From: Moniliella sp. 'wahieum'
Taxonomy: Eukaryota
Reading direction: 5' to 3'
Length of the DNA stretch: 64,000 bases
NCBI GenBank assembly: GCA_003971905.1
Contig: RSEE01000169.1
Coordinates: 1-64,000, forward strand
Numbering within the stretch: the stretch's first letter is position 1; every line of letters begins with the position of its first letter. The translations under genes were made by a program, and so were the position numbers. Shown in pieces: positions 14,526 to 60,789 of the stretch. The notes beneath the pieces are model-generated. The model was not told the DNA's origin and searched no databases. It worked only from the letters and a program-made list of their open reading frames with translations.

Positions 14526-15009
14526 ATGACCGGTGACCCCCTTTGCGGCATATGGTATCCCTATCCTGGCCTCGGCCGACGCTTCTGCTTCTGCTTCTGC
14601 TTCTGCTTCTGCTTCTGCTTCTACTTCTGCTTCTGCTTCTGCCAGTAATGCCGGACCCCCCTTCCCTCCTACTGGCTACGCCCTACTTTATCCACCCAAG
14701 CAATCAGATCTCCGATCGCACGTCCAAGCGCCCCTTTCCCTCGCCTGGAAGCTGCTTCCAACCCCGCCGCGCCCAAGGCCGATTCACCCACCTACACCAC
14801 TTTCGTCCCGACGGCCTTTGGCACAGTTGCACCACCACCTCCTTCCACCTCTATCGCCCCCGACCTCCCTCCCCCGCATGTCGTGCCCTCCGGTGCCGTC
14901 CTGGGCCACGGGCCCCAACCGTCCCAGATTCCTTGGCTTCGGACGCATCGATGATCACGGGCCAAACGTGGTTCTCGTGCTTTGGTCAGAGGGACATGCT
15001 GGGTGTTGA
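14526..15009 (+). CDS. Possible orphan protein divergent from the TF (Ala/Ser repeat, Pro-rich); frameshifted
   Basis: ATG at 14526, (GCTTCT)n encoding ASASAS, and a frame over 14763-14954 with C-ending codons (PAAPKADSPTYTTFVPTAFG..). No homology recognised. Confidence 0.3.
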
Positions 15010-18000
15010 TACGGGTTGTTTGCCCCACATTGGATCGCGGGGGGGACGCGAACCTCGACCCAGCCTTGTTGGTATGGGAAGAACCGTTGCCGCCGCCCCC
15101 AGAGGCTCCGTCGCGGCCTCAGCTTCCTTAGCCAGAAAGAGAAGGTCTGGAATGGCTGCCTTGCAGTGGTTTGAGTTGGAGCAATTAAGTGTGTGCCCTG
15201 GGTGCTTCTTGATCATCCAGTCCAGTATGTCCGTCCAATCGTTACTCGGTACTCGTTACTCGTTACTCGTTAAGCACCAGCACCCTTGCTTTGGGTCGGA
15301 CTCGACGGTAGCAAATCAGCCTCCTGCTGCTTACCCCCTCCTTTGCCTACCACCTACTCACTACGAATAGGCAGCTGGTTCCACTGTCCCGGTGCATGTA
15401 ACCCACCCTGCATCGGCCCCACCAGTGAAAACGATATCTCACAAAGGAAGTCTGGTGGCTGTAGGAAGAGGCAGATGCAGAGATAGATGTACCAAGCCAA
15501 ACGTGAATGTTAGACTGTGATCCTGCAGCTGCTCTTATCCCGGCTCGATAGCGTAGTGGTAACGCATCTCTGGCCAATAGGCGATGACATGTGTTCGATT
15601 CCCATTTGAGCCTCTCTTTTCCTTACTGTTTCCCCCGGGTTGTGCCTTCTCACAGTGAATGGGACACAACGCCATACACACCTTACACACTTCGTGGTCT
15701 TCTTTCCCTCGTTTTTTACCACCTAAAGTACCTATTAGTACGCCCACATCGCCCTCACCCCCTTTGTCGGCTGTACCCTGTATGCGCTGCGGATAGCGCC
15801 TGTCCCATTGTCCTACTGTTTAGTAGTGTTCAACGTTTGCGGGTTGACCTCTCCCCCTCTCATCTCCATGCTACTACAGCCAATGCTTGGTATTGCCCAC
15901 ACAGGTTGATGTGGTGGACCGTGTGTCGTTTATAGCAGCAGCAGGAAGACGATGTATCACAGCATGGATGACAGTCTACCAAATAAGCGACTACTAATCT
16001 ACTTTCTCGTCTTTATCTCTATATGAAGAGTGAGCATTCCACGGCCAAAAGAAGGGCGACAGGGGTAGGTGAGCGCTGCGCGTGCAACTTCTCCCGTAGT
16101 ATCCCCTCTCCCAAATATCTGCAATGGGATATGCTGTGTCGTCGCGAACAACACAACTTTTGCCAAGGGACAATGGGCCTCCGTGATACCGTGTCATCCA
16201 AGTCATCCATGTCAGTCACATGTCATCATGTCATCTGCATGTCATCGATCCGCGATGATGCGGTGTCGAGAACCAAACGTTGAACACTTTTTGGTTGGGA
16301 TGGAAGACAATGGGCGGGATCCTGTATCTCTATCTGTTTTCTTTCAGTTCCTGAAGTTAAGATGTGTGTGACATGTCAATGTCAATCTAACTGCGACAGT
16401 GTCAATATCAATGTCAACAAACAGATGGCGAAGCGAGAGCTGGGCTTGGAGGCTTAGAGCTGCTGAGAGCTAAGAAGAATAGCCGAACGAGCAACTTTAT
16501 TCTTGTGTCGCGACGTTGAACGTGTTGAACGTTGAACGTTGAACGTCCTTCGCCCACGAGTGCCTGCGTGGGCACAAAAGATTACCGGCCGGTTAGCAGT
16601 TACCGGTTACCGGTTACCCGAGAAAGTCGGTTGTACCTTGTTGTACCCTCCCAGTTGTTTTCCGTTGTTCAGATGTTCAACGTATACTGTGCTGTAGTCT
16701 CCAGATGGCCACCGGATCAATGACCGAACATTCATCACACCTATGAGAAGACACACACCATCTGAGGAGAGCGATACAGAGCTTGCCACATATATATCCG
16801 TCTCGCACATGCAGCACATTGTGCTATAGTGTCTATGGGAAACGTCCAACAAAGACCTGAGGGCCTGAGGCCGGAGCGAGCACTGAGTACTGACGCGTGA
16901 CGTGCTGACGTGTTCTGAGGCTGACACACTACTTGGTTCAACTTCAGGGTCTAAACAAACAGAAAGCTGGGGAAAGAGAGGATGCGCTCGGGTGTATTCA
17001 ATCGCATACCAAGGAAGTGTCTGTCGGCGGCGACGACGTCGCCGCTCCGTTATTATATACGTGTGAACGTTATCTGCGTTATCCAACGTCTCTTCTCCCA
17101 TCAAAAACAATGGAGATGGTCCATGCGTGGCGCGGGATAATCGATACTAAGGTACTAAGGCTTAACGCATCTGGCGCGGGAAGGCGTAAAAAGCGCAAAA
17201 CGCGCAAAACAGATGTGCAACACCCGCCGGAGCGTGTGACATGTGAGTAGTATGTGAAGCCTGCACAGGACCTGAGAGTGGGACAGACTCTCTGTCAGCG
17301 CCTCAACGTACTCATCAACCTCTAATAAAGCTAAAGCTTAAAATTTGGTGAAGCTTTCGGAGCGTTTGAAGCTTACAGTTACATCCTCGCTCCACTGAAA
17401 AGAAAACACACACTATCTTCGCTGGTGATCTATCCCTTCCTACTCCTTGCTGCGGATGTGTAGGGGGGAGCGGGGTTTGTGCTGGGTGCTCAGCGAGCTC
17501 AGGCTGAGCGCGCTGATTAGGCTGAAGCATGGAAGGAAGTGGAGATGGGGTGTGTGCCTGTGTGTGGTCCTGTGGTTCTATGTGTGGTCTGTGCGCGTCC
17601 TGATGGAGATACGGTCTTGCACGTGGGAAGTTAGTTTAATCACCTGGAAGCTTCGATGTGACACGCAAATAAAGGCCACAACACTGCAAATATGCTCTTC
17701 CATCTTCCACCCTACCGTCCACCCCACAACGTCCAACCCCGCAGGAGAGGTGGTTACAGGGAAATTCACATACGGTCGGGGCGGCGTATACTTATTGGGT
17801 GTTGTTCTGAAATCTGAGACGAACGTTCTTCCTATCCTCTCCTTCTCGCTGCGCACGTTGTAGATTCTCAGCTTTTCAGGTTTCATATTCTCGCAATCGA
17901 TTAGCGACAATCGACAATCTTGAATCCCCCCCGCTTCTTAGAACCAGGGTAACATGTGTAAAAACTCTTCAAGCTTCTGGTTTCAAGCTCAAGGCCAAGG

Positions 18001-19400
18001 TTGGAGAAGACGAAATGTGATGAGATCTGAGAGATCTCGATGTGCAGTGGTTCAACGTCCAGTGTTAAACGTTAATGCTGTTGTGTGGCCCATATATTGT
18101 AGTGCGCACGCGGTTTGTCAGTTTGTCCTTGTGCCGGAGGTATCCGTCCTCTGCGGGGCAGCCTATCCGCCCGTGGGCAAGGCACACGTGTGCACTGTGC
18201 TTTCTGTGCACGTTGGCCTGCTGGGCAGGCTTTTGTTAGCGTTTATTACGCAGCTCAAACCAAGGCGTTCAAGCTTCCAGGCAGCTTCAGGGGGAGGTTC
18301 GCATCGGGGTGGCCGGTGGGCCGGGGTGGTGTGGCGGTGGGCACAGTGCTTGAAGCTTGAGGCGACGGCCAGGAGCTTGAAGCTTTGAAGCTTGAAGCAT
18401 TTGAGGCTGATGATTAATGAAGGGTTTTGCTGTCCGCACCGGTACAGCGCTGGGCTGCTACGTACGCCTGAGGCTAGCGCCTGGTCATAATGAGTACCGA
18501 GTAGTCACAGTGACTTGGTGACTAGCTATTAGTTACTGGTGGCTAGGCTGGCTGGTCACGGCGGTGACCAGTGACCTGACGCGGACGCTGACTATCGGGC
18601 TAGTCAGTGACTCCACCACCATCGACCATCCCACACCACGGCGCAAGTGCCATGTCACATGTCAGCAGGGGGGCAACGGTACCACCAACTCGCCCGCGGC
18701 CTGAGGCCAAGTGCCTGCATTGACATCGTCCACGGGCCCTGTCACATGTCAGCCATACACAGCCCAGCCAGCCCTGGACTGGATGGAGGCGCTATCGATT
18801 ATGCCCTCTTCTCCCTCAAACTTCAGTGAAGCTTCAAGCTCATGCACATATGCTTTTCTCAAGCTTCTAGCTTCGGGCAGCTTCTAGCGTCTAGCTTGCA
18901 GCTTGCCGCCCTAGCTTCCAGCTCGTCAAGTTGCAACTGCAACAGAGCGAGTTTCATGGCCTGTGCTCTGTCCTGGGATGCCACCCGGCAGCACGCGGCA
19001 CATGATCGATGTCGGTGATCCATGATGCCCACGCCCGCTGGCCAGAAGTATTGGCCACCTGCCCGGCCTGTCAGTGTCCTGAGCGGCCCAGCGCGGAGGC
19101 TGAGTTGAGCGGGCCTTGGCGACCGTACGTGGATCGGATCATCGATGGGCTTCATCCATTCGGCCTCCCCTGGGGCGTCGCATCCCAAAACATCTCCCCA
19201 CAGGCCCCACATCGCATCATCCATCCCCACCCTGCTCAGCGCTCGGCCAGGCGCTCAGCCCAGCGCTCTGTCTGCGCCATCCGAAAGTTTTCCCTTGCAA
19301 AGTCGAGCCATGCAGGGCACTGCGACAGCCTCCCAGCCCACCTGTCTCTTCGCACGGGCATGTCTATCGCCCCACCTGCGCTGCCCGCCTGCCCAATACA

Positions 19401-19508: not shown

Positions 19509-20463
19509 ATGGCATCCCCCCTCCAGCTCCAGTGTCTCCACGACCTTTGCGCCGCGTGCGTCCCCCCGGCCAGCCCAGCCTTGTCAATGGCATCGTTGTT
19601 GGATGGTACGTATGCCCACCACCGTAATGTGCTGGCTACTCTCGGTGCTAATCCGACCCCCCCCCCACCACCCCCTCCAGACATGTCTCCTCTCTCCACA
19701 CCCACCGACAGCGAAGCCCCCCCGTCCCCGCACACTGGCCGTGGCCGTGGCCGCGGCCGCAGCATGGCCCGCCGCACCTCGATGCACCGTGGCAGTGACC
19801 CTTGCCGGCCCACTGGTCTTCCGCAGCCAGCCCTTGCTCATGACGTTACCCTCCCCTCGGCTGCCATCAAAACCGTCTCCCTCTCTCCTACCCACGCCAC
19901 CAACACCCAGCCCGAAAATTCCATGGGTGCAGCCTGCTTCTCCCTTCTCACCAGCTACGCTTTGGGTCAAGACCCATTATCCCGTCCTCCCTCTCCACCA
20001 GAGGACGGTGATCCCGACTCGCTCTTCCCATGGAGATGGGCATGGAGATGGAGACGGAGATGGAAGTGGAGATGGACCTGTTTGGGGACATGAACAAAGA
20101 CCGCACAGCCCTATTAATCGAGACGCAAGGATGCCTTTTGGTTCTTCTTCCGACTTGGCTCTGGCTCCACTGGGTGCCCGTGCCCGTGCACGCACTTACC
20201 TCCCCCCGCCTCGACCTGCCGTGGTAACACGCAAATTCTCCACTCCTACTCTGCGTCCTGTGTATGGCAAGCCCTCCCTTGGCCCTGTGGTGGAAAAAGA
20301 GGTTCGGGTCAAACATACGCCCATTCCCCCCTCACATCGCGATGCTGCGTTGCCCCTGCAAGATGCCCTGCAGCCACGCCGACGCTCTAGTAGGCGAGCC
20401 CCTTCCATCGAGGAAGAGCGCAGAGGAATTCCCATCCCCATCCCACCGTCCCGCCAGCGCTAA
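19509..20463 (+). CDS. Hypothetical Pro/Ser-rich protein (one or more indels near the (GGAGAT)n tract)
   Basis: MASPLQLQ..MASLLDGTYAHHRNVLATLG..DPDSLFP is joined to ..RKFSTPTLRPVYGKPSLGPVVEKE..IPPSRQR*. There is an upstream TATA box and a pyrimidine-rich 3' region. Confidence 0.5.
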
Positions 20464-21090
20464 TCGATCATCGATAATCCCCCTCCCCCACCTCCACTCT
20501 ATGACCCCCCACCGCCACGACCCAGTCACTGCCAACCCCTGCCAAAGCTGTGGGGTTGGTAGTTAGTTTCTCGGGTGACGAAACGAAGACTTCAACTGCC
20601 TCTGGTATCGATCTTGGATCTCATTGATCTTATCCATCTTTTCTCTACTACCTCCGCTCCCCCCCTCCTCTCTTTGTCCCCCTGTCTCCCCGCTCCGGCG
20701 CTTTAGCCCTCAGCCTGAGCCCTCAGGCCTCCCACTCATCTCATCGCCCCCATCCGGCGGCCTCTTTGCCCCTCGCCGCGGTGTCAGACTTTCCTCATGC
20801 CTGATGTCTGATGCCTGGGTAGGAAAAAGACAAAAAGGACTACCGTTGGGGATTCTTCCCCCCCGCATACCTATCTTCCCATGGGCCCCCAGCCTCAGGG
20901 CTTCACCTCTTCGAAGTGATCATCCATATGACGTTCTACTATTTCGTGCTTTGGATAGAACGTTAATGCTGCTGCGGCCAACAGATGGCTAATAATAGTG
21001 GGACTGCTGGGCTGCCGGGCCGATGGGGGGAAAAGAGAGGCTCTCATGCTTTTGCTAGTTCTTTGGTTGGCTGTTGTGACTGGTCACAGA

Positions 21091-21120
21091 AGTGACTAGT
21101 GACTAGTGACTAGTGACTAG
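21091..21120. repeat. Heptamer array (TGA-CTAG)x4
   Basis: agtgactagtgactagtgactagtgactag. Confidence 0.95.
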
Positions 21121-21224
21121 ATACCCGATGCCCACAGAGTGGTTAGACGCCCACCGCACCTCTGCAACTCAGCCCCTCGGTTCGTTCAGCGTACGTCAAG
21201 TAAAATTGACAAGCGGGAAGTTTG

Positions 21225-21266
21225 AGCTTGAAGCTTGAAGCTTGAAGCTTGAAGCTTGTAGCTTGA
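21225..21266. repeat. Heptamer array (TGA-AGCT)x5-6
   Basis: agcttgaagcttgaagcttgaagcttgaagcttgtagcttga. Confidence 0.95.
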
Positions 21267-21586
21267 AACATATACCTCTGGCCTCAGGGTTGGGTGTACA
21301 AGATGGCCCCACCATCCACTCTCCCCACGTGTCATGGTGGGCCTTGCTGCGCCAGTGTTGCGTTGCTCTTACGTTCCCCCCCGGCGCCCCCAGCTAACAC
21401 AGGGGCTCCGGCACGGGTGCCGGGTGGCGGTTAAATACGAAAGACGCGTCTCAGATCTCAGGCACCGACAATCGGTGATTGCCACATCCTCGCACCAGAC
21501 CAGTTCATTAGTCATTGGTCACTGTTCACTAGTCACTGGTCCCTGAGTCTGGCCGTCTCAGACTCGATTTCAGATCTCAGACTCAA

Positions 21587-21658
21587 AGCTTAAGATCTAA
21601 GATCTCATGCATCATGCATGCCACATGTCACATGTCACATGTCACATGTCACATGTCA
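21587..21658. repeat. Compound heptamer array with AGCT, GATC and TGCA cores in one phase, followed by (CATG-TCA)x5
   Basis: AGCT-TAA-GATC-TAA-GATC-TCA-TGCA-TCA-TGCA, then CATG-TCA five times. Confidence 0.93.
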
Positions 21659-23611
21659 CGGATCTCACACGTCCCGACGTCACGCTTGGCATGGTATGCA
21701 CATGCGTGCTTGCGTGCTTTGCGTGTTTCGCCACCCGGCTTGGCTCTGGCGCTTGGCTCCGCCCCGCCAGTGCCCCGCCCCACAGACACCAGTGCACCAG
21801 TCGACACCAGCCCACCTCGGCCTAAGGCCCCAGGGCCTCACCACCGCTCGCTACCCCAACTTTGGATTTGACTACACTCGCTCTGAGCGACGGCGAGACG
21901 CACCTTGAAGCTTGAAGCTTGAAGCTTGAAAAGCTTGAAAAGCTTGAAACATGTAGGGGGTTCCTTCCTCTTGCCCCCCCCGTTTTAGTACTTAGTGGAG
22001 CGGTGGGGACGGGATGAGCGGCTGGGACATGGGACACACACGGCAACAGAGCGCAGCAAGATAAGAGCTTTAGCACAACGAAAAGCTGCGAAGCTACGAA
22101 GCTAAGATCTACTCTAGTTTAATAGGGATCTATCTGAAGATCTAGGATCTAGCAGCTAAAGTGTCCAAGCTACAGACAGCGCGCGTTGAGCTCTGATATG
22201 GAATGGGCCGAAAATGTCATCCACATACGCACCTTGCCCCCCAACCATTAACGTTTAGCCACACCGCCATCAAAAGTGTACGCAAGTTTATAACAAGTTT
22301 TTTATCTCTCTAGTCCCCGCAACCCCACCCGCAAGCACCTTCCCCCCCAGTGATAATGCGAACGTACGAGCATCTTTGATGGCCATGTGGCAAACACGTC
22401 ACATGTCACTTGTCACTAATTAATCACTCAAGCTTCAAGCTTCAAGCTTCAAGTTGCTAGAACTATATAAACTACGTGACGCGGGAACATCGATCATCGA
22501 TCACACGATCACGAGGCACTAGTCCCTACGAGCCGTTACGCGTTACGCGTTACCGGTGACCAGCCTCCGCGTGCGTGCCCACCATGTCCACACCTTTTTA
22601 TAGACTTGTCCACGTGCGCCCCCGTGGATTCGCCGCAGGGCACCATTGCTCGCCCCACACCTGCCACAGGGTTGGAGGTACGTTGAACGTTGAAGCTTGA
22701 AGGTCCAAGTTCTAAGATCTAACCTCTCTCCCCTTTCCGTCCTCAGGCCTCGGGCCCAAATACCCCACAAGTATATATATGGCACCACAGGCAAGTCCGC
22801 GGTCGTGGTCATCTCCAGAGAAGATTTGATATCGCTTCATTAATCATTGCACGCCGTGTGCCCCACACGCGCCCACATTCCATGTTGTGTTTGGGGATGT
22901 GGAGGGAGGTTGTTGGTTGGGGATTTGATGCTGCGTAACATGTTACAGGTAACATGCGTAACGGCCACAAAGAGACCCTTTTACGCCCCCACATTATGTC
23001 CTCAAAACAGAGGGTCAACGTCTGTTGAACGTTCAGTTGACCGTTGGAGCACGTGAGTACATGAGTTGTACACCCGTTACTTGTGTTACTTGTTCCTTGT
23101 TACTTGTTACCCTTTCACCCAACAAGTCCCTGACAACAGCGACAGCTGGGGGTGGGAAACTGAAACTGACAGGTCCTGCGGGCCGGTCATGGTCATGCAT
23201 CATGCATCATGTGAAGCGCCCCGCATGTGGAAAGCGTAACTGTGCCGAAAAAAAGCCAAAAAGATTCAAGCGCTTAGCTTCAAGAGCTTCAAGGCCATGG
23301 CTTGTGGGCAGGACCACCGCTGTTTTGCTTTTATATTTACCCTTGTTCATCCATTGCTACTAATGCACAAAATGCACAATAGCTCTCTCAGCTTTAAGCT
23401 TCAACAACGTTCAGCCATGCAACATGGAGGTACTGTGGGCAACTTTCCTTTGCCTGGACGTGTCGGCTACTTTACCTCGACGAGCAACAATGAGCAAGCG
23501 CAATGATTAATGAGCTGCAACAGTACCATCTGTGCATCAGCTGTGTATCGAGGACCCCCATCAGGCCATCATGTGCATCATGCATCATGACCTTATATAT
23601 GCACATCAAGT

Positions 23612-23959
23612 TTCAAGCTATCTTGAGGCTTCAAGCTTCAAGCTTCAAGCTTCAAGCTTCAAAAGCCAAGCCCCTCTCTCAGATCTCAGATCTCGGAGCT
23701 CACAGAGCTGATACATGCATTACACCCCACAGCGACCTCTTTATTTTCTCCCATCTTCCAGTCATCATCGATCGTCTCCCAACTCCCATCTTGTTCTCTC
23801 AGTCTCAGCTCTCAGTCTCAGCGGGAACGTCAGTTACGCGTCCCTGGCGGGGCCCCAGGCGCGGGGGAGCGCTGAGCTTCAGGCCTCCGCGTCTGAGATC
23901 TGACAGCCTGCCGCACTGATCGGCCGGCACCGGCCTCAGGCCTCAGGCCTCAGGCCTCA
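23612..23959. repeat. Cluster of heptamer arrays (TCA-AGCT)n, (TCA-GATC)n and (TCA-GGCC)n
   Basis: tcaagcttcaagcttcaagcttca at about 23631-23661, tcagatctcagatctc at about 23679-23694 and ggcctcaggcctcaggcctcaggcctca at about 23932-23959. Confidence 0.9.
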
Positions 23960-24576
23960 CCCCCGCGCCGCGAGGTGAGATATCAGAGCGAGAAAAATGT
24001 TAGATGAACTGATCCCGTCCAATCGACTCATTGGCTGTTGTCGTAACTAGTAACTTGATTGGTTATTGTTGGGTCATATGCGCGCCTGTCCTTTGAAGCT
24101 TGGAAGCTTTACGCGTTACGTGCCTTGCGTCTTCCATCTTCTACAATCGGTTAGGTACCGACTCGTACGTGTTCCCATGTCTGCTTAAGCCTTAGGTGTT
24201 CAGCTCGCCCTTTTCAGCTCGCCCTCGTTACCGAAACACGACCCCGTGCGGGCATTGCACGACCAATTCCCAGATACGAGAGGCCATTACTTCGTTACTC
24301 GTTCTATTCACATCTTTCCCACGCCCTTGGGCCGTCGCTCCACCAGCTTCACACACCCTCTCCCCCGGCCCAGATCGAACGAGGTGGAATATCCTAGTCG
24401 CGCGCAATCGCAGATTTTGGGCAGCACTTACTAGGCGCGCTCATCTCTGTCCCTTCTGCTGTGGCCAAAAGCAGACCGGATGCCCCCGTTCCTATCACTC
24501 ACCCCTACTGGCGGCGGTGCGGAAGCGGGAAGGGGGGGTGGGGGTTCGTTAGGGCCTTGCGGAGAGCCAATATGCG

Positions 24577-27705: not shown

Positions 27706-30700
27706 TCAACGCGGCGTGCGCGCGCGCGTGTGCGACTGAGCATAGGCATAGGCATGGGAATGGGCATGGGAATGAGAGTGCAACGCCTGCAACCGCACCA
27801 TAGTACGGAACAGTCCGTCGCGTTCGGCCAACTGACGTGGCGTGCCTCGCTCCACCACCCATCATGAAGCACAATCACCTCGTCCGCCTGCGCCGCCACC
27901 GCCGCCACGCTCGGGCCGCACGCGACCCACTCGCAGACGCATTCACATGCGCCACGGCAATCGTCGTGCGCGCCCGCTGCGATGGTGCGGTCCGGTCCGG
28001 CTCAGACGCAGACTCAGACGCAGACTCGGACGCAGATTCGGACGCGGACTCGGACGCGGACTCGGACTCGGTTTGGGGTTGTGTGGTTTGGGGTTGTGTG
28101 GTTTGGGGTTGTGTTGGTTGGGTCTGGGTCTGGGTCTGGGGCTGGGGAACACAGCGGGCGCGAGCGCGACTTGGTCCAGAATGGCCTGGAGCGCCGCTTG
28201 GTGTTCCGGTTCCAGTCCGAGCGTAGGTTCGTCCAGGAGCAACAGGGGGGACGGCGCACGAGCGCGCGGGCCAGGGCGATTTGTTGTCGTTGGTGAGGCG
28301 GGAGGACGAGGACGCGGCCCGGTTGCTCTTCCCTGCTGGTACGGGGCGAGCCGAGGGGTGTAGCCTGCCCCGGTCCTAGTTGGGTCGCGGTCGAGGGAGC
28401 GCTGGTAACGCGACTGATCGAGTCGGGTGTCTCGCTGGCTTCGTTGGGGTTGGGCGAGATCCACGTCTCAAACCGTTCGGGGAGGGATTCGATCCAATCG
28501 AGGCAGCCGGCTTCGGCTGCCGCCTGACGTACCTGGGCCAACGGTACATTCAAATCCACTGCATCCACCATGGATTCAGGCGTCCACGTCAAGGCGGCCG
28601 CACCGAGTCGTATGTTCCACCCGATCGTACCTTCAAACAACGTGCCGCCCACCGTAGGCATGCCCCACCCTCGTGCCCACCTCGAGTCTGGCGCGAGGAT
28701 GGACATGCACTTCCTCATCTCGCCCGGGGGGACATTGGATATGTCGACCGAGTCCAGTTGGATCTGGCCGGCTGGGCTTGGGCTTGGGGTTGGGCCTGAG
28801 GCCGCAGGACCAGACTGGCCATCCGCTAGGTAAAAGCGCTCGAGCAGACTCATGAGCGCATGTGCGCCATTGGCCACGGCTTGGTGTTGCAGCTCGTGCA
28901 TGCTTACTTGGGCATTGTGCGACGCACTCCCGCCTGCACTCGCACTGATCACAGCCACATACGACCCGGGCAGCACGTCGAGCGTGAGATGTTGCAGCAG
29001 CGCCGGCGCTTGCGGTACGGGGATGATGGAAACTGATATCTTGCAACGTCACCCTCACCCCACGCGGTCCTTCGGGTTCCGTCCCGCCTGGCTCGCGTTC
29101 GCCCAGTTTGGTTTCCTCTTCGGCCGCTTCGGCGGCCGGCAAAAGACGAGCCACTTGAGGATCCGGATTGCGGCCAGTGGCGTTGAGTTCGATCTCGTTG
29201 CGTCGGTCGAGGAGACGGAAGATCTGGTTGCCAGCTCGACGCGCAACTTCAATGTCCGGCGCAAAGTTGAACACGTTGCCAGCTTGGATCGAACCAAAGA
29301 TGACGGCGGTCAAGACGGTGAAGAATTTTTCAATGGTAATGTGGCCATGCTCCAGCATCCGACTGCCATACCAAAAGCCAAGTGAAAGAACGAGAAACGC
29401 CAGACTTTGACTCAGTGCGTACACCCCATTGCCCCACCCCACAATATGGTACACCACCGCGGCAGGACTCATGCCACCGAGACGCGTGCCATGTTGGCTG
29501 GTGGATAAGGCCTGCTTGTACGCCTGCAGCAGTGTGCTGCAACTGCAAACTGTGCACTAGCCGTACCACGTCCCCATCGGGCCCGGCGACCGTGAAGAGC
29601 AAGCCCGACTGAATTGCCGAGCGCAAGTGCGCCCGCTTGATCGCCCCGTCCTTCAATACCACCAACAATCGACACGCTCCAGCGGACAACAAGAGTGGCG
29701 TACACGCAATACACACGCCAGCCATACGGGGACTGTAGATCAACGCAATAATGTACCCTGCCACCAACGTTGCGACACTCTGCACGATCGTGCCTAACGT
29801 AGCGCCCACCAAGCCGGTTAACTTGTTGGCTGCATCGGTTAACCCGGAAGCGTGGGTCAGCGCATACTCTGCTTCTCCGCCACCAGCATGGTCCCCTTCG
29901 CCTCCGCCCACCGTCGCGCCCGTCATGGCTCCCGCCAACGACATGGCATTGGGTCCGGCGGCCGTACGCGAGTGAATAAACGTCGGTGCGCGCGTGGCTG
30001 CCTTGACATCCCGCCCACTCGCATCGGGGAACGAGGAGGGTGTATCGGAGGGATTGTCAAAGTAGGAAATGTCGGCTCCGAGCAACTTGGACAGACACTG
30101 CGCTCGTACACGTTCAATCGTAATGGCGGCATTGAGCATCAGGTTGTGGGTTTGACCAAGATGGCCACACCAGCCAAAATGGCCACAATGAAAAAGTACA
30201 GAGCGTTGAGCTGGGCTTGGTGCTTCATCCGGTGGCGGTACGGCTCGGCACAGGCATGCGGTAACCGCGCCGTCTCGCGCGAGGAAAATACAAAGGTAGA
30301 CCCGGCCTCAGCCATGATCATAGGTGTGCACGTGGAAAAGTTGTGCAGCGAGCGACCAAATAAGATCGAATAGGCCGGGTAGGCACAGCCGGAACATGCG
30401 GCCGCCACTAGGCCGGGGGAAGAACAGCGGGATCAGCTTGTCCTTGTTGACCATAGCGAGGCGGTAAAGGAGGTACAAGGCACTCCATGCTTGGGACGGT
30501 GTAGGAAGGGAAACCTCCGTAGTCGGATCCAGAGCCGGGTGCGAAGCGGCGGACCTCGCACCTTGAATGGCACAACAGGCCGCGCGGTCTGGGTGTCAGC
30601 CAGTCGGTTGGCACGGTGAGACATCGTGGGCCTAGGGGACCTGGGTGACCGGGGTGACCGGGGGGCGGGGGGACCGGGGGGCAAGCGCGTGCGTCTTGTC

Positions 30701-33088: not shown

Positions 33089-34142
33089 GGCGACTGGGGC
33101 GGGAGAGGGGCCGGAGAGACGGGAGGGGGCGGAGGGGGCAGCGAGGCAGATGGTGGGTGGGGGCGAGCGATGGTGGTGGTGGTGGTGGTGGTGGGGGGAT
33201 GGGCGCGGTGGAAGCGATGGAGAGGAGCTGGACGAGGAGAGGAGATGCGATGGGCGGCGGGCGAAAGAGGGTGGATGGATGCGGCTGATCGAGCGCCGGG
33301 CAGGACAGAGGATGGTGTAACTTTGGCGCGGGCCGGGGCAGGGCACGGCGCCAGTGTGTGCAGCGGCTGCCAGGGTGCTTTGTGCCTGGCCGCCCAGCGC
33401 ATCCGACACTGCCGCTGTGCCAGCAATCCAACCCTACATGGCAGGCGCTGACGCGTGACGGGTGAGGACGAGCAAGCAGGGGCCAGCGACGCGTGACGCG
33501 TGACTTCACGCGTGCCTGGTCGTCGCACCGAGGCACTCCCAGGCACTCCCTGCCCCTCCCCGGCGCTCCCGGGGACACCCCGCGGCTGCTGTGCGACACT
33601 GCCCCTGCGCCGCCCGCTGCGGCGTGCGGTTCCCCGCGCAACAGCCGTCGGCGCATCAGCGGGGGGCACTCTCGCCTGTCACACTCACATCACGCGCCCT
33701 ATGTCACATGTCACGCGTCACGCCTGCATTGGCCCGAACTGTGTCGGATTGTTGAAAGTTGCAGGGCTGGGGGTTAGTTCAGGCGACGTTCAGTTCAGCT
33801 TCAGCGTTCAATTGTTCACGTTCAGCGCGCTCAGCCGAGGCCTGCAACGGTTAATGAGGCTCAGTCTCAGCCCTGACGCTGGTTGGTCGGGCATCTAGTA
33901 GACCCACAGACAACCAACAAAAAGCAACATGGAAGCGAAGGAGGGTGGGGATGATATGTGTCCGTTGTGGCCAGCAGGGCAAGACAAACGAAGGATAAGC
34001 TAGAGTGCGGGGGAGGCATGGTCGATGGACAGTGAGGTATAGGCTAGGGGAAGGAAGAAATCGAAAGAAAACGAAAGAAAAACGAGAGGGAGGAGAGATC
34101 CTAGACGAGAAAAGAAGAGGGAAAAGAGATTCGGCCCTTTCT

Positions 34143-37127
34143 TCAAAACGACAACCAACGTCGTGGATCAGGCGCATCATCGTACGGCACGCGGCCGTCC
34201 TGGGCCACCTGCGCATCCACTTCCGCCGCGGCCTTGTCGGCCGCAGCAAACTCGCGCCAAGCTGGCCACCGGGCCGGCGGAGGTGCCGAAATCGCCTCCA
34301 TGAATCGCAGGAACCGGTCACCGTATCGGCCAGGTCGCACGGGGGAAATCCACTTGTGGCCAAGGTAGGTCGCCTTGAGCAGGTGCTCGGCCCGTTTGAG
34401 CGGCGTATACAGCGTAAACAGATCAATCACACCCAAGTAGTAGATCCAGTCGCCGGGATCATTCGAATCGGAATGGGAATGGGAATGGGAATGGGGATGG
34501 GAATGGGGATGGGAATCGGGATGGGAATGGAGTTGACAGGACGGGTACTACGCAAGCCACCTTCGTCTTGGTAAAACAGACAAAAATCGCGTTCCTTATC
34601 ATCTGTTTCGAGCAGGTCTTGGTCCACACTTCGTGGGTCCGAGCGTTGCACGGCTTGCCGCACCCGGTTCACCTCGCCCCGTTCTCCTCCCACCGACGAG
34701 GGCTGGAACACACTGAGCTTTTCTGCTCGTAGGTTCTCCGAATTGCCCCGGCGCACATCGTGCAGGCCAACCAGCAGACTGTAATCCATGATCCGCAGAC
34801 GCTCGAGCAGCGCCACGTCCACAGCTACCTGCTGATGGAACAACGTGTTCATTTCCGGTCCTAGTTCGAGGTGGCGGGCACGACGACGTAACCAGTTAAT
34901 GTCCTTCATGGTTGCCCCAGGTTTGTGGGCCAATTTGTCCTCGGGGTACTCGCGTCCTACCAGCGACCCTTTGAGGTCGTACGTCTCGTGAATGTCTCGG
35001 TGCGGGGGGAAGAGGTTGTTCATCACGACGAAATGGATCTTTCGACCGCCAGGTAACTTGACCCGATGCAGGCCAAAGAACCGACTGAGTAAAGTGTGCG
35101 GATGGGCACGTACATGCTCGTGGTACGCCGGCAGCATCGACAATAATACTTTCTTCTCCGACGGACGGATGGTCTTGATGATAAATCGATAGTCCCGACT
35201 AAAGTAAAAGAACGACCCGCTCTTGCCCGGAGACCCCAACTCACTGAGAATGTACTCGGAGGTGAGGGAGAAGAGATAATCGGCCGCGGTGAGGTGAAAT
35301 AGAGTGCGCAAGTCACGAAATACTTCACTACAATAACTCTTGAACTTAAAGTCGTACCGCGACTTGGGACCCAATTCGTTCCCGACACTGGAAACAGAAG
35401 AAAATAAACAGTAAACCAAGACAAGACGCGTCAATATCAATATCACTCTTCCATCCCCTCCCACTCTCCCTCTCCCCTTTGGAATCATTACCATTCCTCA
35501 ACCCAGAAGAACACGTACATATCAAATGTAAACTTGTGCGAAGCGCCATAATCGCTCTCCCTCAGCGGCCGACGCGGCTTGGCCTCACACCGCGACACGG
35601 CAATCCGAATGCCAGTAAGCATATTGTACATCAACACGTAATTGCCGTGCGTCTCGTCAATGATGCGGCCAAGAGCATGACGCGGTACCGAGGGTTTGCC
35701 CCCCTTAGGTGCAGGTGCTGGGCCTTGACTCGGCCTCGGATTGCGACTTGGTGCGTGCACTTGTACTTGAACTTGTACATGCGCGTGTGCCTGTGCCTGC
35801 GCTTGCGTCTGAGCAGGAACGTTGGCGAGACCAAGCTCATGCTGCTCATGCCCGGCCCGCACACCATGGGTCGGAGCAAGACCGGCACTGGGACCGGTCC
35901 GACCTTGTCGACCCTCATGCGCCAACGTCTTTTTCCGCCGCAACCGCTCCGCCGTCTTGTTGGCTTGCTGATCAAACGCGACATCGCCCGTGCAGATCGT
36001 CGGGGCAGTTGGTTTGGCGCCTGGTCGTGCGGGGTCAAAAGAGGTACTAGGTCCGACCAGACCCAGAGGACGAGATAACATCTCCCCCGCCCGTCCGATC
36101 GAGGGATCGATCGAAACGTAAATGTTTCCCTCGGCCGCCAGCCTCGTCCGATCCGGGCCCATGCGCGTGTCCAGCGGGGAGGACTGGGGCGGGCGCAGGG
36201 CTGGGCATAGGCTTGGGAAGCAGGTGCGCTTGACTCGGTCCACGCCCCATGGATACGGGCAAGGGAGGCGCGTCGGAAAAGAACGGAGGTTGGGACGAGG
36301 GAACAGTACCGATCGTAGATGCTGTGATGGCCGGCGATGGGGCCGAGTAGGTCGATAGCGCTTCGGTCGTAGACAATCGGTCTCCCAACCCCAATCCCGA
36401 CGGCGCCGAGCCGCCAGCAGAGGTGGAGGAGAGAGAACTAAACCTGGTCCGGCCGCTTTGGTTCGAGTTGCTCCGCATTCGCGAGGACCAGGGCGACAAG
36501 GGCACGCCGTGCTGCGCAACAGGATGCACGAGCGGCAGCGCGGCATGCGAAGGTGCAGATGCGGTCTCGGAGGGGACAACAGTGTCAGGGCCCAATGTAA
36601 TGGGGCCGCTGGGCTCTTGGGCAGACTCGGTCGGGCCAGGGGGGAGGGCGGAAGACGCATCCTGCGTCCCGCTGGCATGGTGTCTCGGGAGGAAACGCGG
36701 TGGCTGTTCCATGTGATAGGCAGAGCAAAGCCAGGGTCCGACGGGTTGGGGGGAAGGTCAGGCGCGGCAGAGGGCAGGGTGGGCACAGCATAAGGATCCG
36801 AGGGACTGATGTACACATCAAACACTTCGCCCGTCTCGGCCTCCATCACCCGAACCGTCTGAGAGGGAGCGGTAAGCGCACTGCGAATGCTCGAGATGGC
36901 ATTACACTTGTCCTCCTCTTCCTCGCTGCGGAGACCCAGGTTGAGCCGATGGCGGTGGGGTGTGGCCGGCCGCTCCACCGAGCGGTCGGGGGAGTCCGAG
37001 TCGTGGCGCGTACGGAAAAAGGGCGAGCGGGTCGGAGCGGGTGCGGGCTGGCGGAACGCCCACTGCTGCTCCCCACGGGGAACTTGGAGGGCAGCAGCCG
37101 GGGTGAAGGCGTTGCGCTGGACGACAT
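34143..37127 (-). CDS. MSS4: Phosphatidylinositol-4-phosphate 5-kinase; intron at about 35390-35518
   Basis: IIDETHGNYVLMYNMLTGIRIAVSRC, KFTFD, YDFKFKSY, SELGSPGKSGSFFYFSRDYRFIIKTI, HFVVMNNLFPPHRDIHETYDLKGS, IMDYSLLVG, GVIDLFT and ISPVRPGRYGDRF, after a long low-complexity N-terminus. Confidence 0.96.
34468..34529. repeat. (GGGAAT/GGGGAT)n hexamer tract inside the MSS4 kinase domain (encodes IPIPIP)
   Basis: ggaatgggaatgggaatgggaatggggatgggaatggggatgggaatcgggatgggaatg lies between GGLRST and the YYLGVID motif. Confidence 0.9.
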
Positions 37128-38010: not shown

Positions 38011-38844
38011 GCGTGCACCACGGCGGTTGCTAGTGACGGTCGCCAGGATAGGAGCAGCAACGTGAGGGTAACATGTACACCCGCGTTCCTGTTCGCAATT
38101 CTGACGGACGCGCGAAGCCCTGGTGTCACGTGACGCGTGATGCATGATGATCGGTGAGGCGACGGGGGCTGCGTTGCTGGCTGATTCCGCCGATGATGAT
38201 GCATGGTGCATGATAGGAGATGGATGATGCATGATGGATGTGATTTGAGATTTGAGATTTTGAGATCTGCTGGGACGGATGGGAGTGCGTGGGGGGACGT
38301 GGGGAATGGGTTGTGAATGAGATGCTTATAAGATCTGAGAGTTGTGGTGGCTTGAGCGTATTAGTGTAGGGTTGCAGCGCAGGGAAACGACAGAGAGGGA
38401 TGCGAGGTCGGCTGTATCTCGCTCGCCCTCGCCAAGAAAACTCGGGCGAGCGGAGTGGGATGGACAGGATGGCACGCTTTTGTTGGCTGCGCAAAGGAGA
38501 CGAAAGAAGAGGGTAGGGTAGGGATGGTGCGGGCGGGCGCTGGCGCGACCAATCGACGTACTCTATAACTACCCTCGAGCTACGGCAGTTGAAACGCCAC
38601 ATGACCCACCACGCTTGCTGGGAAGTACATACTACAGTTATCGATTCGACCACAGGGGCACTCGGCCTGGCGCCGCGTCTTCGCCACTTCCAACTCTATC
38701 TGCTCTGCTGCCCATCAGGGAAGAGACAGCAGCACACACCCCGTCTTCTCTCCGTTTCAGCCACCACCACCAGCCCATCTCTCGCTCTTCCTCTCCTCGC
38801 CTCTCCTGCACGCCGTGCTTGGCCTGATCTGATCCCGCTCCCTC

Positions 38845-45218: not shown

Positions 45219-46008
45219 GGTGGCGAATGGTGGAGGGGCGACGGCGGGGCGGGGTGTGGAGTGAACCAACACGGCGATGGGCGCGGCGGGGCGGAGGCGG
45301 GCGGAGGAGGAGGAGGTGGTGGGTGGGTGGCTGGGTGGCGAGACAGTGACTACTTGCTGTGACTGGAAGCTGGAAGCGTCCCGGCACGCATCATGCATGC
45401 ATCATGCGTCCCATGTCACACGTGCTGCGCTCGCCCGGCTGTCTCCGCCTGGGGCGCAGAGCATTGGGCACGCCCAGTGCGCTGGTGGGAGCCCGTATGC
45501 GGCACGCCGGTTGCCTCATCGGTCTCATCGATCAGATCGATCATCCATCACCATCATGCGTCCTCCGCGCAGCCAGTCCGCACGGCGCCAGCCACGCGCT
45601 GGGGGGGACGCAGTAAGCACACACTGATCAAGTACAGAGTGCTGGACACTGCTCCGGCGCCCGTCCGCGGGCCACGTTCCACTGCGTCCAAATATTTGCG
45701 CTGCGTGCCGATGCGTGCCGATGCACGGAGAAGCCACCCCGAACGTGTGGGACCTGCAGTTGGACACTCGGCTGGTGCCCAGCCTTGGCACCGCCCCAGC
45801 CGCCGACTCATGACTAGTGACTAGTGACTGCGTCCTGTTCGCCCAATTTCCATCGGCGCGCCAGGCCCATTGCACCGATCAGCCCAGCCTGCCCACGGGG
45901 TTGTCGCGCGCGGAACTAGCGCAGGGCGGAATGGGCGTCCCTGCCCCACCCCCGCCCGCTCGCTTGCTCCACATTGGGGTCCCCACTCTCCAAAACGTCT
46001 CATGCATC

Positions 46009-47722: not shown

Positions 47723-49235
47723 GGTGCTGGACGGGGGACAAGAGAACGCCCTACCCCTCCCTCCACCCGGACCACTTCTCAACGCGCGCCGGACGAAGCA
47801 GGGCACGGAGAAGCCACGACGCAACCCTATTGACGTTCAGGTGGGAGTAGACTGGCCTTGTTCCCTCCTGCTGCGGCTGGCCGCACGGAGGAGAGAGCGC
47901 CCCTCCGCCAGACCCATTATTTTGCAACCGTAAGGAATTCAGACACTCACCCCATACTGTGGTTTTGACGGGCCAACGTACCTCCCTCCAACCCTACCCC
48001 TTACTCGGCAGACGCCGCGTGCCACTGCCGCGTGCCACTGGCCTCCCTCGCTGTCCAGGCCTGCGACAAGACGGCGCGGTTGAGCTATCAGCAAGGGTGG
48101 TGAGGCCACCAAGCCCCAAGTAAAGTAGACAGTGTCAACGCTTCTTTCTTTCTGAGTTCCGTGTCCTCGTTGAGTAGGCGAGTGGGGGAGGCGAAATCGA
48201 CGGTCCCGGTGCCCCTTCCGGCCCTTCCATCCCAAGAGGTCGGGACTCCGGACTGAGTACTGAGTAAGACGCAAAGGTTCGGCCGCTGAGGACTGAGGTT
48301 GCGGGAGGATCAAATGGCGAGTGCGCCCCTCCCCAACCCCCCCTGGGTCAGCCGGTTCGACTGGCTTGTGACGTGCACACGTGTTGGGGGACAGGAGAGG
48401 CTGTTGAGCGGCTGAGCCCTGAGCTGAGGAGAGAAGACACTTGTTTCGTTACCGTCACCGTCACCGTCACCGTGTCCGTATCCGTCCGCACGGCTTGTTC
48501 CAGCTGTTCCAGCTGTTCAAGCTGTTCAAGCTGTTCAAGCTGTTCAAGCGTCGGTTCCCCCGCCTTCGCCCCCTCGTTCATTAGTCACTAGTCACTCCAC
48601 CTACCTACCTTATCCGTATCCCGTAGGCAGGAACAACAATAGCTTCCAAAGGGAGTCACAACAATGGCGCAGGGCAACCTGAAGCACTCTACAGAGCGCA
48701 CGAGGTGCAGAGGAGAGGGAACAAGAGGGGGGGGAAACCAAAAAAACACAAAGGCAAGAAGGAGCCGTCAAGCTTCAGCGTCAAGCCTTCAAGCCTTCCA
48801 AGCGTCAAGCTCGCGTCAAGCTCGAAGCTAGCTTCCAGGAAAGATAGAACAGGGTGGCAACTAAGGTACCGTCGTACCAGCCGTACCACCGTATCAGACG
48901 CCTAAGCTCATGGGAGTTTGCCAAGCAACAGCAACCCGAAGCCAGAATCGGCGAAAGGATAGAAAAGGATATGGGGGGGCGGTGACGCAGTCAGATGGGC
49001 ATGGAGCATGGAAGAAGAAAGGGGCGGCTAAGGGACGGAAACAAGAAAACAAGATGCCCGATGTGGCATGGACCATGGACCATGGATTATGGTTCATGGT
49101 TCATGGTTCATGGTACATGCATCGTTGGGGCCTGTCATCCGATCCTTTCATCGATCACAACATGGTGCCCAACCACATTCGAATCGGCGGGCGTCGCCTC
49201 GTCTGCGTCCGCATGGGGCCCTGCAGCTACTCTGC

Positions 49236-54900: not shown

Positions 54901-57900
54901 GTCTCAAAAAATGGAAAGGCCATCTGTGTCGCCTTTGAAAGTTCCTTCCATGTGCGGAGGAGTGAGAGAGAGAAACGGAATTTCCTGTGGCCGTTTTTGC
55001 CCTACAAGTATATGGACATGACACTTCCTTGACGCGAAGTCGTCCTCATAGTCCTCGCATGCTGCGCCTGTACCTTCATATAGTATTCTCTGTCGGTACA
55101 AGTGAATACCGCATATGTGTTTCTTCTTCGTTCTGCCCTTCACCGGCCTGACCTGCATTTCTTTTTTCCTCATTTCTCACCCTGATTTGTGATTCTTTAC
55201 ATCGGTGGGAGGTGACTATGACTCGTCCACCTCGTGCCCTCGGCTTCCTCTCTGCCTACAACTTGGCCATCGCTGATGGAGACTGACTAAATGGAGTCCA
55301 CAGATCGGTGGGAGTGTCAGATTCATATATGCCGTGCCAGGGGATCCTTGGCCTAACCCCTTCACCCGCGTGGGAATTATAGCGTGATTCACGTACTGTA
55401 ACCACATCATTGACAAAGCTTATGGCTGAGAACAGCGGAGGCGAACTCGAACCGGCGAAAACATCGCACGTTAAACGGCCACCGGTCGCAACTCAATGCG
55501 TCTCAACTCAACGTACCTTAACGTACCCTTAACCCTCATCGACCTCTCTCATCGACTCAGCACTGGTACTCACAACGTTCAACGTGTTCAACGTCGTCCG
55601 CAGTAGGCCTCGTCCGGGCTTCCTCACTGTCACCTCCTGCACGAGAACTCACGCAACGTAGGTTAAATCAATGAAGGGATCAGTTTGACTGTACGCGGGA
55701 AGGAGAAGGGGAAACTGGTTATAGTACATCATATACGAAGGTATCCAGGTGGTAGAAAACCTTGAAGAAGAACTTGAATAGCTGTGTATTGTAAAAAGGG
55801 TGGGGGGTCTGAGACCCGGGTCACTTGAACCTTGAACAGCTTGAACGTGAGCGTTTTGAGCGCTGAGCGGATCAATGTGTTACATGTTTTTGTGATGTGA
55901 CATGTGATGCATGATGATCGAGATGATCAACACGTCGTTTCGGAAGCTTGAGACGCGTACAGTAGTGCGCGTATTAGCGCGTCAACGCGTCAACGTTCAA
56001 CGTTCAACGTTGCTGGCTGTATATGAGTACACTCAGGAGTATGAATATGGCGCCTGCGACATTGTGACTGTTACATGTGACGGTGGCAAAGTCATGAATC
56101 GAAGAACCGACGAACTTGTTGAACACGTTGAACGCACAAAAAAACTGCACGTCTGCTGTGCGGTGCCACCATTCCCAGCGTCGCTACGGAATAAAATCGA
56201 CGTGAATTGTTTACTGAAGACGCTGACATGTTCGCGAGCTTCACATTAGGGAACCGAAACCCTGGTTTTACGGGTCCCGCAGGGCTCTATCTGTCCGGAT
56301 TCGATACACCGACCCCCCTTCGGACCCCGCTGAGTACCGAGTAGTGACGGTGGGATTGCGGCATCTCATCGATCACCAGCGGAGACCTTCCCTGCCCATC
56401 GGAGACAATTAGACTCACTGAGAACTGAACGATGAGTTCCACAGATCCAAAGTCAAGGAACACTGGCGTGAATTTAGGAGGGCCGTGAGTAGTCCATTCC
56501 TAGTGGTCGGGCAGAGCCATGCAGCGTCCGGGAAGGAGACTGCGCGTTATAGGTTCCGGACGTGAAAGCGTGGAGCTTCAACGGGCGAAGGAGGCCTGCG
56601 AGCGAGCTGATTGAAAGGGAGGAAGATTATTTAGGGCCTAGAAGAAGGAGTAGGGGAAAGGGAGCCAAGAAGCAATAATAGCAACGATTATAATGATACC
56701 GGAGCGAAGGTGTGGCTGGCAAGGCGACTTCGTCGTTGCCCTACAGCCGTTACCACCTCCTAACAAGCTGGATCGGCATCAATATTTTTTGTGCCGGGTA
56801 CATATATGCTCTTGCTAAAGCTGCAATGTCCCCCCTATTCATCGCGCGCGCCCCTATGTTGAACACACACCAGGGACGTCAGATCTCAGAGATTTAGGTG
56901 AGGAAGTGGCAGTGGCAACGTACTTTTTTGGGATAGAGTGATGTTCTGTGGGCTTCTTCGGCTGGTGGTACAACGATATCATCTGAGGGTCTTGCGTTTT
57001 GTTTCTTGGAGCATTTTTTCTCGTCCGTAGTCGAGTAGTCCCAGTAGCAAACTATTTGGCCACCCATACCGAAAACTACAGCAGACTACTATAAACTACT
57101 GTCTATTAAAGCCCCCCTGCTCGTCACGTCCCATAATCTCAGTCACTGGCTCTGTCACATGCAGGGGCACCTTGTTCGAAGACGTGTCGCATCATTTTCC
57201 AGGTCACACACATGTCACATGTCATACGGCATACATTTGTTCTGGCGGGCTCGGGCCGTGTATTACAGAGTGCAGGTGATTTGCGTGGAGCTTGTGAACA
57301 GATGGACGCCGAACCTAGCTACCAAACAGGGTGCAACTTCCTCGTTCCCACGGTGTTCCCACGGTCAGTAACTGAATAATGCCAAGTGTAGTGCACTGCG
57401 CAGAACGTGTTTCCAACGCCCCGCAGTACCTCTTCTTCTTAGTGTGAAGAAAACGGGTGTGACGCGGCCAAAAAACTCTTCATGTGTAAAACAAGGAGAG
57501 AGCGATGAGGAAACCAAGTGAGCCTAATACTGTTATCGTCTGGTGTCCCATGTGCCTCTTCCCCCTTGGAAAATAACTATACCCGGCTATACTGCGTGTA
57601 CTCTATCGCATCGATCAGCATATCAACATGCGACTACATCTATAGGATTTTCCCGCTATTATACTACCAACCCCACATACCTTGTTCATACTGTGGACTC
57701 CGGCCATCGGCTGTCCCATGCCCCACGCTGTGTCGGCACGTCTGCACATCTCACCTCTCTTGGACTTCATAATAACCGTTTTCGGTTTGGGCAGGCGGGA
57801 TTGGACGCTGGACGTTGGACGAAGGTGTTGGAAAAAGAACTGTGTGTTGGGCCGGCAAACATGCATCCTCACAAACACGCCACGTCACTCGCGGTACGTG

Positions 57901-60754: not shown

Positions 60755-60789
60755 TGAGTATTGAGTACTGAGTACTGAGTACTCATCGA
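60755..60789. repeat. Heptamer array (TGA-GTAC)n switching in phase to TCA-TCGA
   Basis: TGA-GTAT-TGA-GTAC-TGA-GTAC-TGA-GTAC-TCA-TCGA. Confidence 0.92.

Follow-up and report, generated by a model that had tools for sequence, protein, structure and literature searches.

Heptamer repeats with flank-copied palindromic cores in a basidiomycete contig, probable footprints of an excising transposable element

Results

An ORF-poor field of heptamer arrays

The stretch of DNA analysed here, hereafter the window, comprises 64 kb (positions 1 to 64,000 of contig RSEE01000169.1, Moniliella sp. 'wahieum') and is basidiomycete nuclear DNA. Short repeats with a period of 7 bp are scattered along it, in which a trinucleotide TNA (N, any base) alternates with a palindromic tetramer, the core (pal4). 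The densest field of these repeats lies at 21091..23960, a stretch that is poor in open reading frames (ORFs) and whose ORFs have no Pfam hit, and it contains 50 TNA-pal4-TNA steps that occupy 350 of its 2870 bp (12%). The features of this field are listed below; none has a strand, and left- and right-type refer to the flank rule described further on.

21091..21120: TGA + CTAG array, (AGTGACT)4.3 in the repeat listing; TGA-CTAG x4 at 21093
21225..21258: TGA AGCT array, 4.9 copies; x4 at 21229
21591..21619: compound array, TAA-GATC x2 then TCA-TGCA x2; the right flank tg sets the right core
21622..21659: TCA CATG array, 5.4 copies, left-type (flank tg); TCA-CATG x5 at 21628
21904..21949: (TGA AGCT)x3.9 running into period-9 CT-TGA-AA + AG; TGA-AGCT x4 at 21906; +9 class (whole 7-bp duplication plus 2 inverted bases)
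22428..22453: TCA AGCT array, right-type
22534..22559: compound array, TTA-CGCG x2 then CCGG-TGA
22684..22700: compound scar gt-TGA-ACGT-TGA-AGCT-TGA-ag; cores from the left and the right flank of one original TGA
23276..23293: period-9 repeat CT-TCA-AG + AG; +9 class
23628..23662: TCA AGCT array, 5 copies, left-type; start 23631
23932..23959: TCA GGCC array, 4 copies, left-type; x4 at 23936

Every array position given in the first-pass annotation of this DNA carries a repeat of the described form, to within a few bases. Tandem Repeats Finder reported numerous period-7 arrays in the window and, among perfect tandem repeats, 7 was the most frequent period (n = 76, compared to 44 repeats of period 6 and 25 of period 8). 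A 6-bp palindrome is present in the circular unit of 43 of these 76 repeats, and 40 of the 76 conform to A-NNNN-T plus one base, where about 2 are expected by simple arithmetic. Using second-order Markov simulations of the window as background for motif counts, we found 298 occurrences of TNA-N4-TNA (98 simulated), 155 with a palindromic N4 (5.8 simulated) and 134 in which, in addition, both TNAs have the same N (same-N events; 1.9 simulated). Enrichment of palindromic cores over such a background, which the first-pass annotation had set as a test of the pattern, is therefore borne out. TNAs separated by 1, 2, 7 or 8 bp occur at background level, those separated by 5 or 6 bp are mildly elevated, and a spacer of 3 bp is overrepresented (166 versus 98).

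The 155 steps fall into 116 loci, with 2, 3, 4 or 5 TNAs at 90, 15, 9 and 2 loci, respectively. Arrays, i.e. the 26 of 116 loci with at least three TNAs, are more frequent than independent hits predict, an excess that either preferred re-targeting or lengthening by slippage could explain. The first-pass annotation had described twelve different palindromic cores; the use of multiple cores holds, but the number does not, as 15 of the 16 possible cores occur and AATT alone is missing (the AT-only cores are TTAA, n = 5, and ATAT and TATA, n = 1 each). The central base of the TNA is G or C in 120 of the 155 steps.

Window-wide, the steps cover 1085 bp (~1.7% of 64 kb), and 44 of the same-N events lie between 21 and 24 kb. 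The reported scarcity of arrays in exons was confirmed: the Pfam-supported ORFs of the window (11,836 bp) contain a single one of the 134 same-N events, located at an ORF end. Stop-free frames of 120 aa or longer, which together make up 74% of the window, cover 45 of the 134. A search for the complete 12-mers returned 160 perfect instances (both strands) and 109 isolated near-perfect ones that satisfy 8 of 9 constraints, versus 7.5 expected. This surplus of near-perfect 12-mers indicates that the repeats are of many ages and that many are old and decaying.

The core is copied from the flank of a single TNA

Comparison of the cores with their surroundings revealed that the core consists of the reverse complement plus a copy of the two bases that flank one side of a single original TNA. 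With the original site written as ab-TNA-cd and primes denoting complements, the core equals rc(ab)+ab or cd+rc(cd), rc being the reverse complement, in 120 of the 134 same-N events: it is accounted for by the left flank in 40, by the right flank in 40 and by both in 40, where 0.05 are expected for each of these classes, and by neither in 14. Loci with exactly two TNAs show the same symmetry (27 left-only, 28 right-only, 10 both and 14 neither). A scan that makes no assumption about TNA, looking for any 5-mer repeated at a distance of 7 with a 2-nt spacer reverse-complementary to its first two bases, gave 255 hits versus 11.8 expected. Positions 3-5 of these 5-mers read TCA in 69, TGA in 64, TAA in 17 and TTA in 10 cases, so that T-N-A emerges in 160 of the 255 hits, the others being rotations within arrays.

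Arrays with two differing cores follow the same rule, since in 6 of 8 each core derives from the flank on its own side, the outcome expected of two events at one original TNA. Besides those of the field at 21091..23960, such compound scars are found at four positions (no strand applies):

16884..16900: compound scar ac-TGA-GTAC-TGA-CGCG-TGA-cg
33704..33720: compound scar tg-TCA-CATG-TCA-CGCG-TCA-cg
38131..38147: compound scar cg-TGA-CGCG-TGA-TGCA-TGA-tg
55898..55914: compound scar tg-TGA-CATG-TGA-TGCA-TGA-tg

On the basis that the core follows the flank, with left-right symmetry and in scans with as well as without the TNA assumption, the basic event is the conversion of ab-TNA-cd into ab-TNA-b'a'ab-TNA-cd or its mirror image. 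The ends of the arrays keep a fixed phase relative to TNA. Two chains depart from the flank rule in their cores or central bases, TAA-TCGA-TCA-TCGA-TAA and TGA-TTAA-TTA-CTAG-TGA (20461-20477 and 59186-59202); they may be mutated or complex events.

Minor junction classes retain whole 7-bp copies

We then described each joint as a pair of equal TNAs between which the left flank keeps 0-4 bases of c d d' c' and the right flank 0-4 bases of b' a' a b. The main classes have four bases from one flank and none from the other, and all minor classes are expected at 0.7 instances or fewer. Joints of +9, in which two copies of abTNAcd enclose two inverted bases, numbered 15 (at most 0.05 expected), and two joints of +11 carry inverted bases from both flanks (0 expected). 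Plain, non-palindromic 7-bp duplications with a TNA centre occurred nine times (0.15 expected). These three classes thus hold whole 7-bp copies of abTNAcd on both sides of the joint, as in a target-site duplication kept at an empty site, and show that the duplicated unit is 7 bp long and symmetric about N. There were also 12 joints of +6 and 11 of +8 (~0.2 expected), the latter comprising eight of the (1,4) form, seven of which equally fit a 1-nt microhomology or overlap, and three of the (4,1) form. Examples outside the densest field are (no strand applies):

48802..48824: +11 scar CG-TCA-AG CT CG CG-TCA-AG; two 7-bp copies retained, 2 inverted bases per side
45389..45406: second +11 scar, CA-TCA-TGCATGCA-TCA-TG
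48511..48549: period-9 array GT-TCA-AG + CT, repeated; +9 class

The joint model fits 45 of 76 perfect repeats of period 7, 9 of 25 of period 8, 7 of 17 of period 9 (about 0.85 of 17 by chance, according to our own arithmetic rather than simulation) and 1 of 5 of period 11; none of the perfect repeats of period 5 (0/111) or period 10 (0/9) is fitted. Sites of the form TNA-pal4-TN'A, whose complementary central bases make 10-bp perfect palindromes, occur 8 times versus 2.05 expected (e.g. at 16369, 18827, 23026 and 41832) and could be joints with at least five inverted bases.

Several other junction geometries were considered and rejected. Were the duplication limited to the 3 bp of TNA, with perfect hairpins (PIF/Harbinger- or CACTA-like), TNA-TN'N'A-TNA should result; it was found once versus 0.1 expected, and duplications of +3 number just 52 versus 32. 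A 5-bp duplication with one-sided P nucleotides (inverted copies of flank-end bases at a joint) would yield the same main product but makes the +9 and +11 classes impossible, and duplications of +5 are not enriched in the window (5 versus 2). A geometry like that of Sleeping Beauty footprints, in which a palindromic 4-bp target would retain 3 nt of the element ends, is disfavoured by the finding of just nine pal4-TNA-pal4 without flanking TNA, compared to 40 + 40 one-sided TNA-pal4-TNA. A symmetric joint with two inverted bases from each flank (b'a'd'c') was found solely at sites that were already palindromic.

A model of excision through hairpin-capped flanks

We consider it fairly probable (about 0.6) that the heptamer repeats are footprints of an element with a TNA-centred 7-bp target duplication that excises via perfect flank hairpins, which would be opened 2 nt from the tip before end joining. 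The 7-bp duplication points to staggered strand transfer by a transposase and the inverted copies of flank ends (in the 120 same-N events and in both cores of the six compound arrays), which correspond to P nucleotides, point to opened hairpins. From the sequence rule, its symmetry, the spectrum of variants and the depletion in genes, all of which are read directly from the DNA, we infer the element, the enzymes, the order of events and the ancestral states.

A cut-and-paste element would enter a 7-bp site ab-TNA-cd, with a mild preference for G-T-(G/C)-A-C, and duplicate the 7 bp; at the reconstructed sites the central base is G or C in 80% (66% at background TNA), and G preceding plus C following the TNA is mildly favoured (37% versus 27% at background). 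The transposase would excise the element exactly at the borders with the flanks, leaving both flanks as perfect hairpins, and a host nuclease would open each hairpin 2 nt from its tip to produce self-complementary 3' overhangs of 4 nt, which read cd d'c' for the left and b'a' ab for the right flank. In the joining step that we propose, one overhang would usually be ligated to the other flank at its recessed 5' end, while the second overhang would be lost as a flap. The outcome would be ab-TNA-b'a'ab-TNA-cd or ab-TNA-cdd'c'-TNA-cd, a net gain of 7 bp, with the left and right classes equally likely. As the TNA sites of such a scar would give the identical core at the next visit, repeat visits or ordinary slippage would build arrays. 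The first-pass annotation had offered as one option a mutational process combining template switch and 7-bp duplication; the duplication stands in outline, but the replicative template switch does not, as the junctions point to a hairpin-capped double-strand break and end joining. The near absence of events from Pfam-supported ORFs fits frameshifting insertion.

Parts of this chemistry have precedents. Hairpins on flanking DNA are an established feature of hAT, Transib and MULE elements and of RAG (PMC5499845, excerpt). Artemis:DNA-PKcs opens RAG-made hairpins chiefly 2 nt from the tip, which makes self-complementary 3' overhangs of 4 nt the dominant product (PMC2175297, excerpt), and such an overhang corresponds to the palindromic 4-mer core described here. 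P-nucleotide footprints are documented in yeasts (PMC5873905, excerpt), and basidiomycete DNA transposons with 7-bp duplications exist, namely hAT7 in rust fungi and Kyakuja in Laccaria (Kojima 2025, PMC12730594, excerpt).

Several observations weigh against this explanation. In the window we found no element bounded by inverted ends and a 7-bp duplication (array self-matches only), no transposase domain among the 230 stop-to-stop ORFs searched with Pfam, and no internal paralogues of at least 60 bp. Because no ancestral state is visible there, insertion at a pre-existing TNA rests on the statistics and the compound arrays. The scars are highly stereotyped, with ~120 of ~170 model-fitting steps of one main form, and Ac/Ds footprints in Candida are more varied (28 forms among 128 revertants; PMC5873905, excerpt). 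Their extreme density (50 steps in 2.9 kb) requires very many visits or growth by slippage, and this density and the stereotyped joint are both unusual among known footprints. We found no characterised superfamily in print in which perfect flank hairpins go together with a 7-bp duplication; a search for the hAT signature was negative, and the excerpt of PMC12730594 gives no confirmation of a TNA centre for the duplications of hAT7 or Kyakuja. Support from metagenomes, described below, is thin.

Comparison with known elements

Among the closest documented footprints are those of Ac/Ds, explained by the Coen hairpin model and described in plants, budding yeast and Candida albicans, which share with the scars reported here largely kept duplication copies, P nucleotides at the joint, small deletions and microhomology (PMC5873905, excerpt). 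They differ in that the Ac/Ds palindrome centres on the complement of the base adjoining the element, hence is odd (PMC5873905, excerpt), and the duplication is 8 bp, whereas the scars have an even palindrome without any complemented base and a 7-bp duplication centred on TNA. A further difference is that one product dominates here and that the scars are numerous enough to build repeat arrays. Junctions of the odd-palindrome type number 0-1 in the window versus 0.07-0.4 expected (the uninformative (1,1) form, 6 versus 2.3), and hAT odd-palindrome chemistry was rejected for lack of these hallmark junctions. Because the odd palindrome is missing, the cut would lie exactly at the element border, as for Transib and RAG; indeed, the palindromes cd|d'c' and b'a'|ab are even and contain no altered base, as an exact-border perfect hairpin would leave them.

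Target-site duplications of Ac/Ds-type members of the hAT superfamily are 8 bp long with the consensus nTnnnnAn, and the scars depart from this with 7 bp and a T and A two positions apart. Transib elements generate a 5-bp target duplication, compared to the 7-bp copies of the +9 and +11 classes. V(D)J joints resemble the scars, as do those of Transib, in the perfect hairpin at the cut edge, but RAG joins gene segments in lymphocytes and most of its joints lose P nucleotides, which here are mostly kept whole, on one side. MULE elements make duplications of 8-10 bp and excise mostly precisely in yeast assays (PMC5499845, excerpt), unlike the 7-bp copies and imprecise scars seen here. CNIRT6, a CACTA element with 3-bp duplications (PMC12810828), was rejected as the type of element responsible. 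The motif CTCACTG is not enriched in the window (7 matches versus 11.4 expected).

The right duplication length is found in hAT7 and Kyakuja, basidiomycete cut-and-paste elements (PMC12730594, excerpt) of which the former belongs to a superfamily whose relatives excise via flank hairpins. For Kyakuja, which is marked by a KDZ transposase, the agreement is in duplication length; its ends are CA..TG without inverted repeats, and the excerpted text describes neither footprints nor a TNA centre nor the excision chemistry of Kyakuja (PMC12730594). No such element lies in the window. It is possible, at somewhat less than even odds, that a very active basidiomycete cut-and-paste family that targets 7-bp sites centred on TNA and leaves perfect hairpins on the flanks, perhaps Kyakuja/KDZ-like, wrote a genome-wide record of scars in which each scar is a better, symmetric target and arrays grow by revisits. 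In the full-text literature we found no paper, by title or start of abstract, on a genome-wide heptamer pattern or on footprint-derived repeats in fungi (subscription journals and figures lay outside the scope of this search), and a search of the same kind gave no support for the (ATTCACG)n heptamers of Ustilago maydis that the first-pass annotation had named as possible relatives.

Alternative explanations

The same break-and-hairpin chemistry could be carried out at TNA-centred sites by a host or domesticated nuclease with no mobile element involved. Such an activity would suit a window without element or transposase and scars as dense and stereotyped as these, and domesticated hairpin-making transposases are known in yeasts (Kat1; PMC4763223, excerpt). 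We nevertheless regard it as unlikely: the 7-bp duplication on both sides of the +9 and +11 joints is the product of integration by staggered strand transfer, and a nuclease leaving two hairpin ends would not duplicate the bases between its cuts. A replication error without any break, either template switch or slippage in quasi-palindromic DNA, would draw on the near-self-complementary units, whose arrays could fold, and on the 26 of 116 loci at which array length outpaces independent hits, and slippage probably does add to array expansion. As the origin of the heptamers it is improbable, since the initial step would depend on a stem of 2 bp and a loop of 3 nt, a structure too weak to guide a switch, and since T-N-A as the exclusive centre, the +9 and +11 forms, in which inverted dinucleotides accompany whole 7-bp copies, and the equality of left and right would all be left unexplained. 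Ordinary slippage microsatellites likewise form short tandem arrays outside coding DNA, and some lengthening of the arrays described here may be due to slippage. They would have arbitrary units and phases, whereas here unrelated units obey one construction rule (the 40 of 76 period-7 units with A-NNNN-T plus one base), array ends hold a fixed position relative to TNA and the majority of loci record a single +7 event.

The first-pass annotation had proposed, as its other option, a DNA-binding or chromatin factor that reads the palindromes at their 7-bp spacing. The arrays do cluster in non-coding DNA, and known palindromic motifs such as ACGCGT happen to be contained in some units. However, the core is no fixed word: 15 of 16 cores are used, each predicted by its two flanking bases and not by a common consensus, 90 of 116 loci are single events and many are decayed, and a protein cannot select palindromy as such across unrelated words. 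Because the flank bases dictate the core, selection of a binding site fails where a repair junction works, and a selected signal of this type, for which we found no support, appears very improbable. An assembly or base-calling artefact is, on indirect grounds, hardly credible, as it would not spare coding sequence (1/134), would neither copy flank bases inverted with left-right symmetry nor yield decayed copies, and would not explain the similar pattern in an unrelated public contig (L062, below). Excision footprints remain the explanation that we prefer.

A similar pattern in metagenome contigs

When public metagenome contigs were scanned for exact matches to three copies of the TGA-AGCT heptamer, at least 121 stretches were recovered; among the matches listed, none has nucleotide similarity to the window and most show the queried array alone. 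The 59 metagenome loci of at least 3 kb among these matches hold just 13 further, non-AGCT events that obey the flank rule, versus 5.4 expected. One of the listed matches, L062, is a 16-kb contig with intron-split eukaryotic genes, including a helicase fragment 84% identical to a Lactarius deliciosus protein. It contains, as read by eye, seven TNA-pal4 loci with three cores, five of which obey the flank rule, and its perfect tandem repeats of period 4-10 comprise seven of period 7, one of period 9 and no others. Another contig, L034, has three loci with three cores within 3.2 kb. These data weakly suggest that the process extends beyond one genome or one assembly. A search of the metagenome loci for inverted ends with a 7-bp duplication gave one weak match (13/16). 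A further contig, L073, looks bacterial, with uninterrupted ORFs of the phosphoglucomutase family and for SSB, and was not counted as support; two TGA/TCA-AGCT arrays lie in it in opposite orientation ~400 bp apart (L073:60-510).

Genes and other repeats of the window

Two genes of the window are the following:

34427-35497, minus strand: PIP5K ORF; named matches in Tilletiaria anomala (65% identity) and Acaromyces ingoldii (62%), top match 76%
15542-15614, plus strand: tRNA-Trp (CCA) gene; sole tRNA and sole Rfam match within the window

The PIP5K matches put the source organism within, or close to, the smut-related Ustilaginomycotina. The remaining Pfam-backed ORFs encode an ABC transporter, an alcohol dehydrogenase, Ras, ribosomal proteins, a Zn2Cys6 factor and a GH5 cellulase. 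The tRNA gene borders an ORF-poor stretch rich in scars, and at 54600-61400 and 15400-19000 the G+C content is lowered (0.47-0.52), long ORFs are nearly absent, there are no Pfam hits and scars are many; these two stretches may be decayed repeats or contain unannotated genes. Repeats of period 6, 12 and 30 lie in ORF-covered DNA of high G+C at 7026-7226, 4713-4821, 14581-14642, which is (GCTTCT)10, and 28001-28146; these are probably coding low-complexity sequences unconnected with the heptamer scars.

Discussion

Excision footprints are usually studied few at a time, in reporter genes, whereas here they apparently make up ~1.7% of 64 kb and 12% of one intergenic stretch, and such scars account for most of the period-7 repeats (45/76) as well as for part of those of period 8 (9/25) and period 9 (7/17). 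If the repeats are indeed footprints, transposon traffic would contribute measurably to short tandem repeats and to palindromic hexamers near genes, and the target, duplication length and cutting chemistry of an element could be deduced from sequence alone, even after the element itself has been lost. The scars would also provide a natural readout of hairpin opening (at +2) and end joining in fungi. A scar record of this kind would seed heptamer, octamer and nonamer repeats together with thousands of 6-bp palindromes in non-coding DNA, in which case transposon footprints can be a main source of microsatellite-like DNA.

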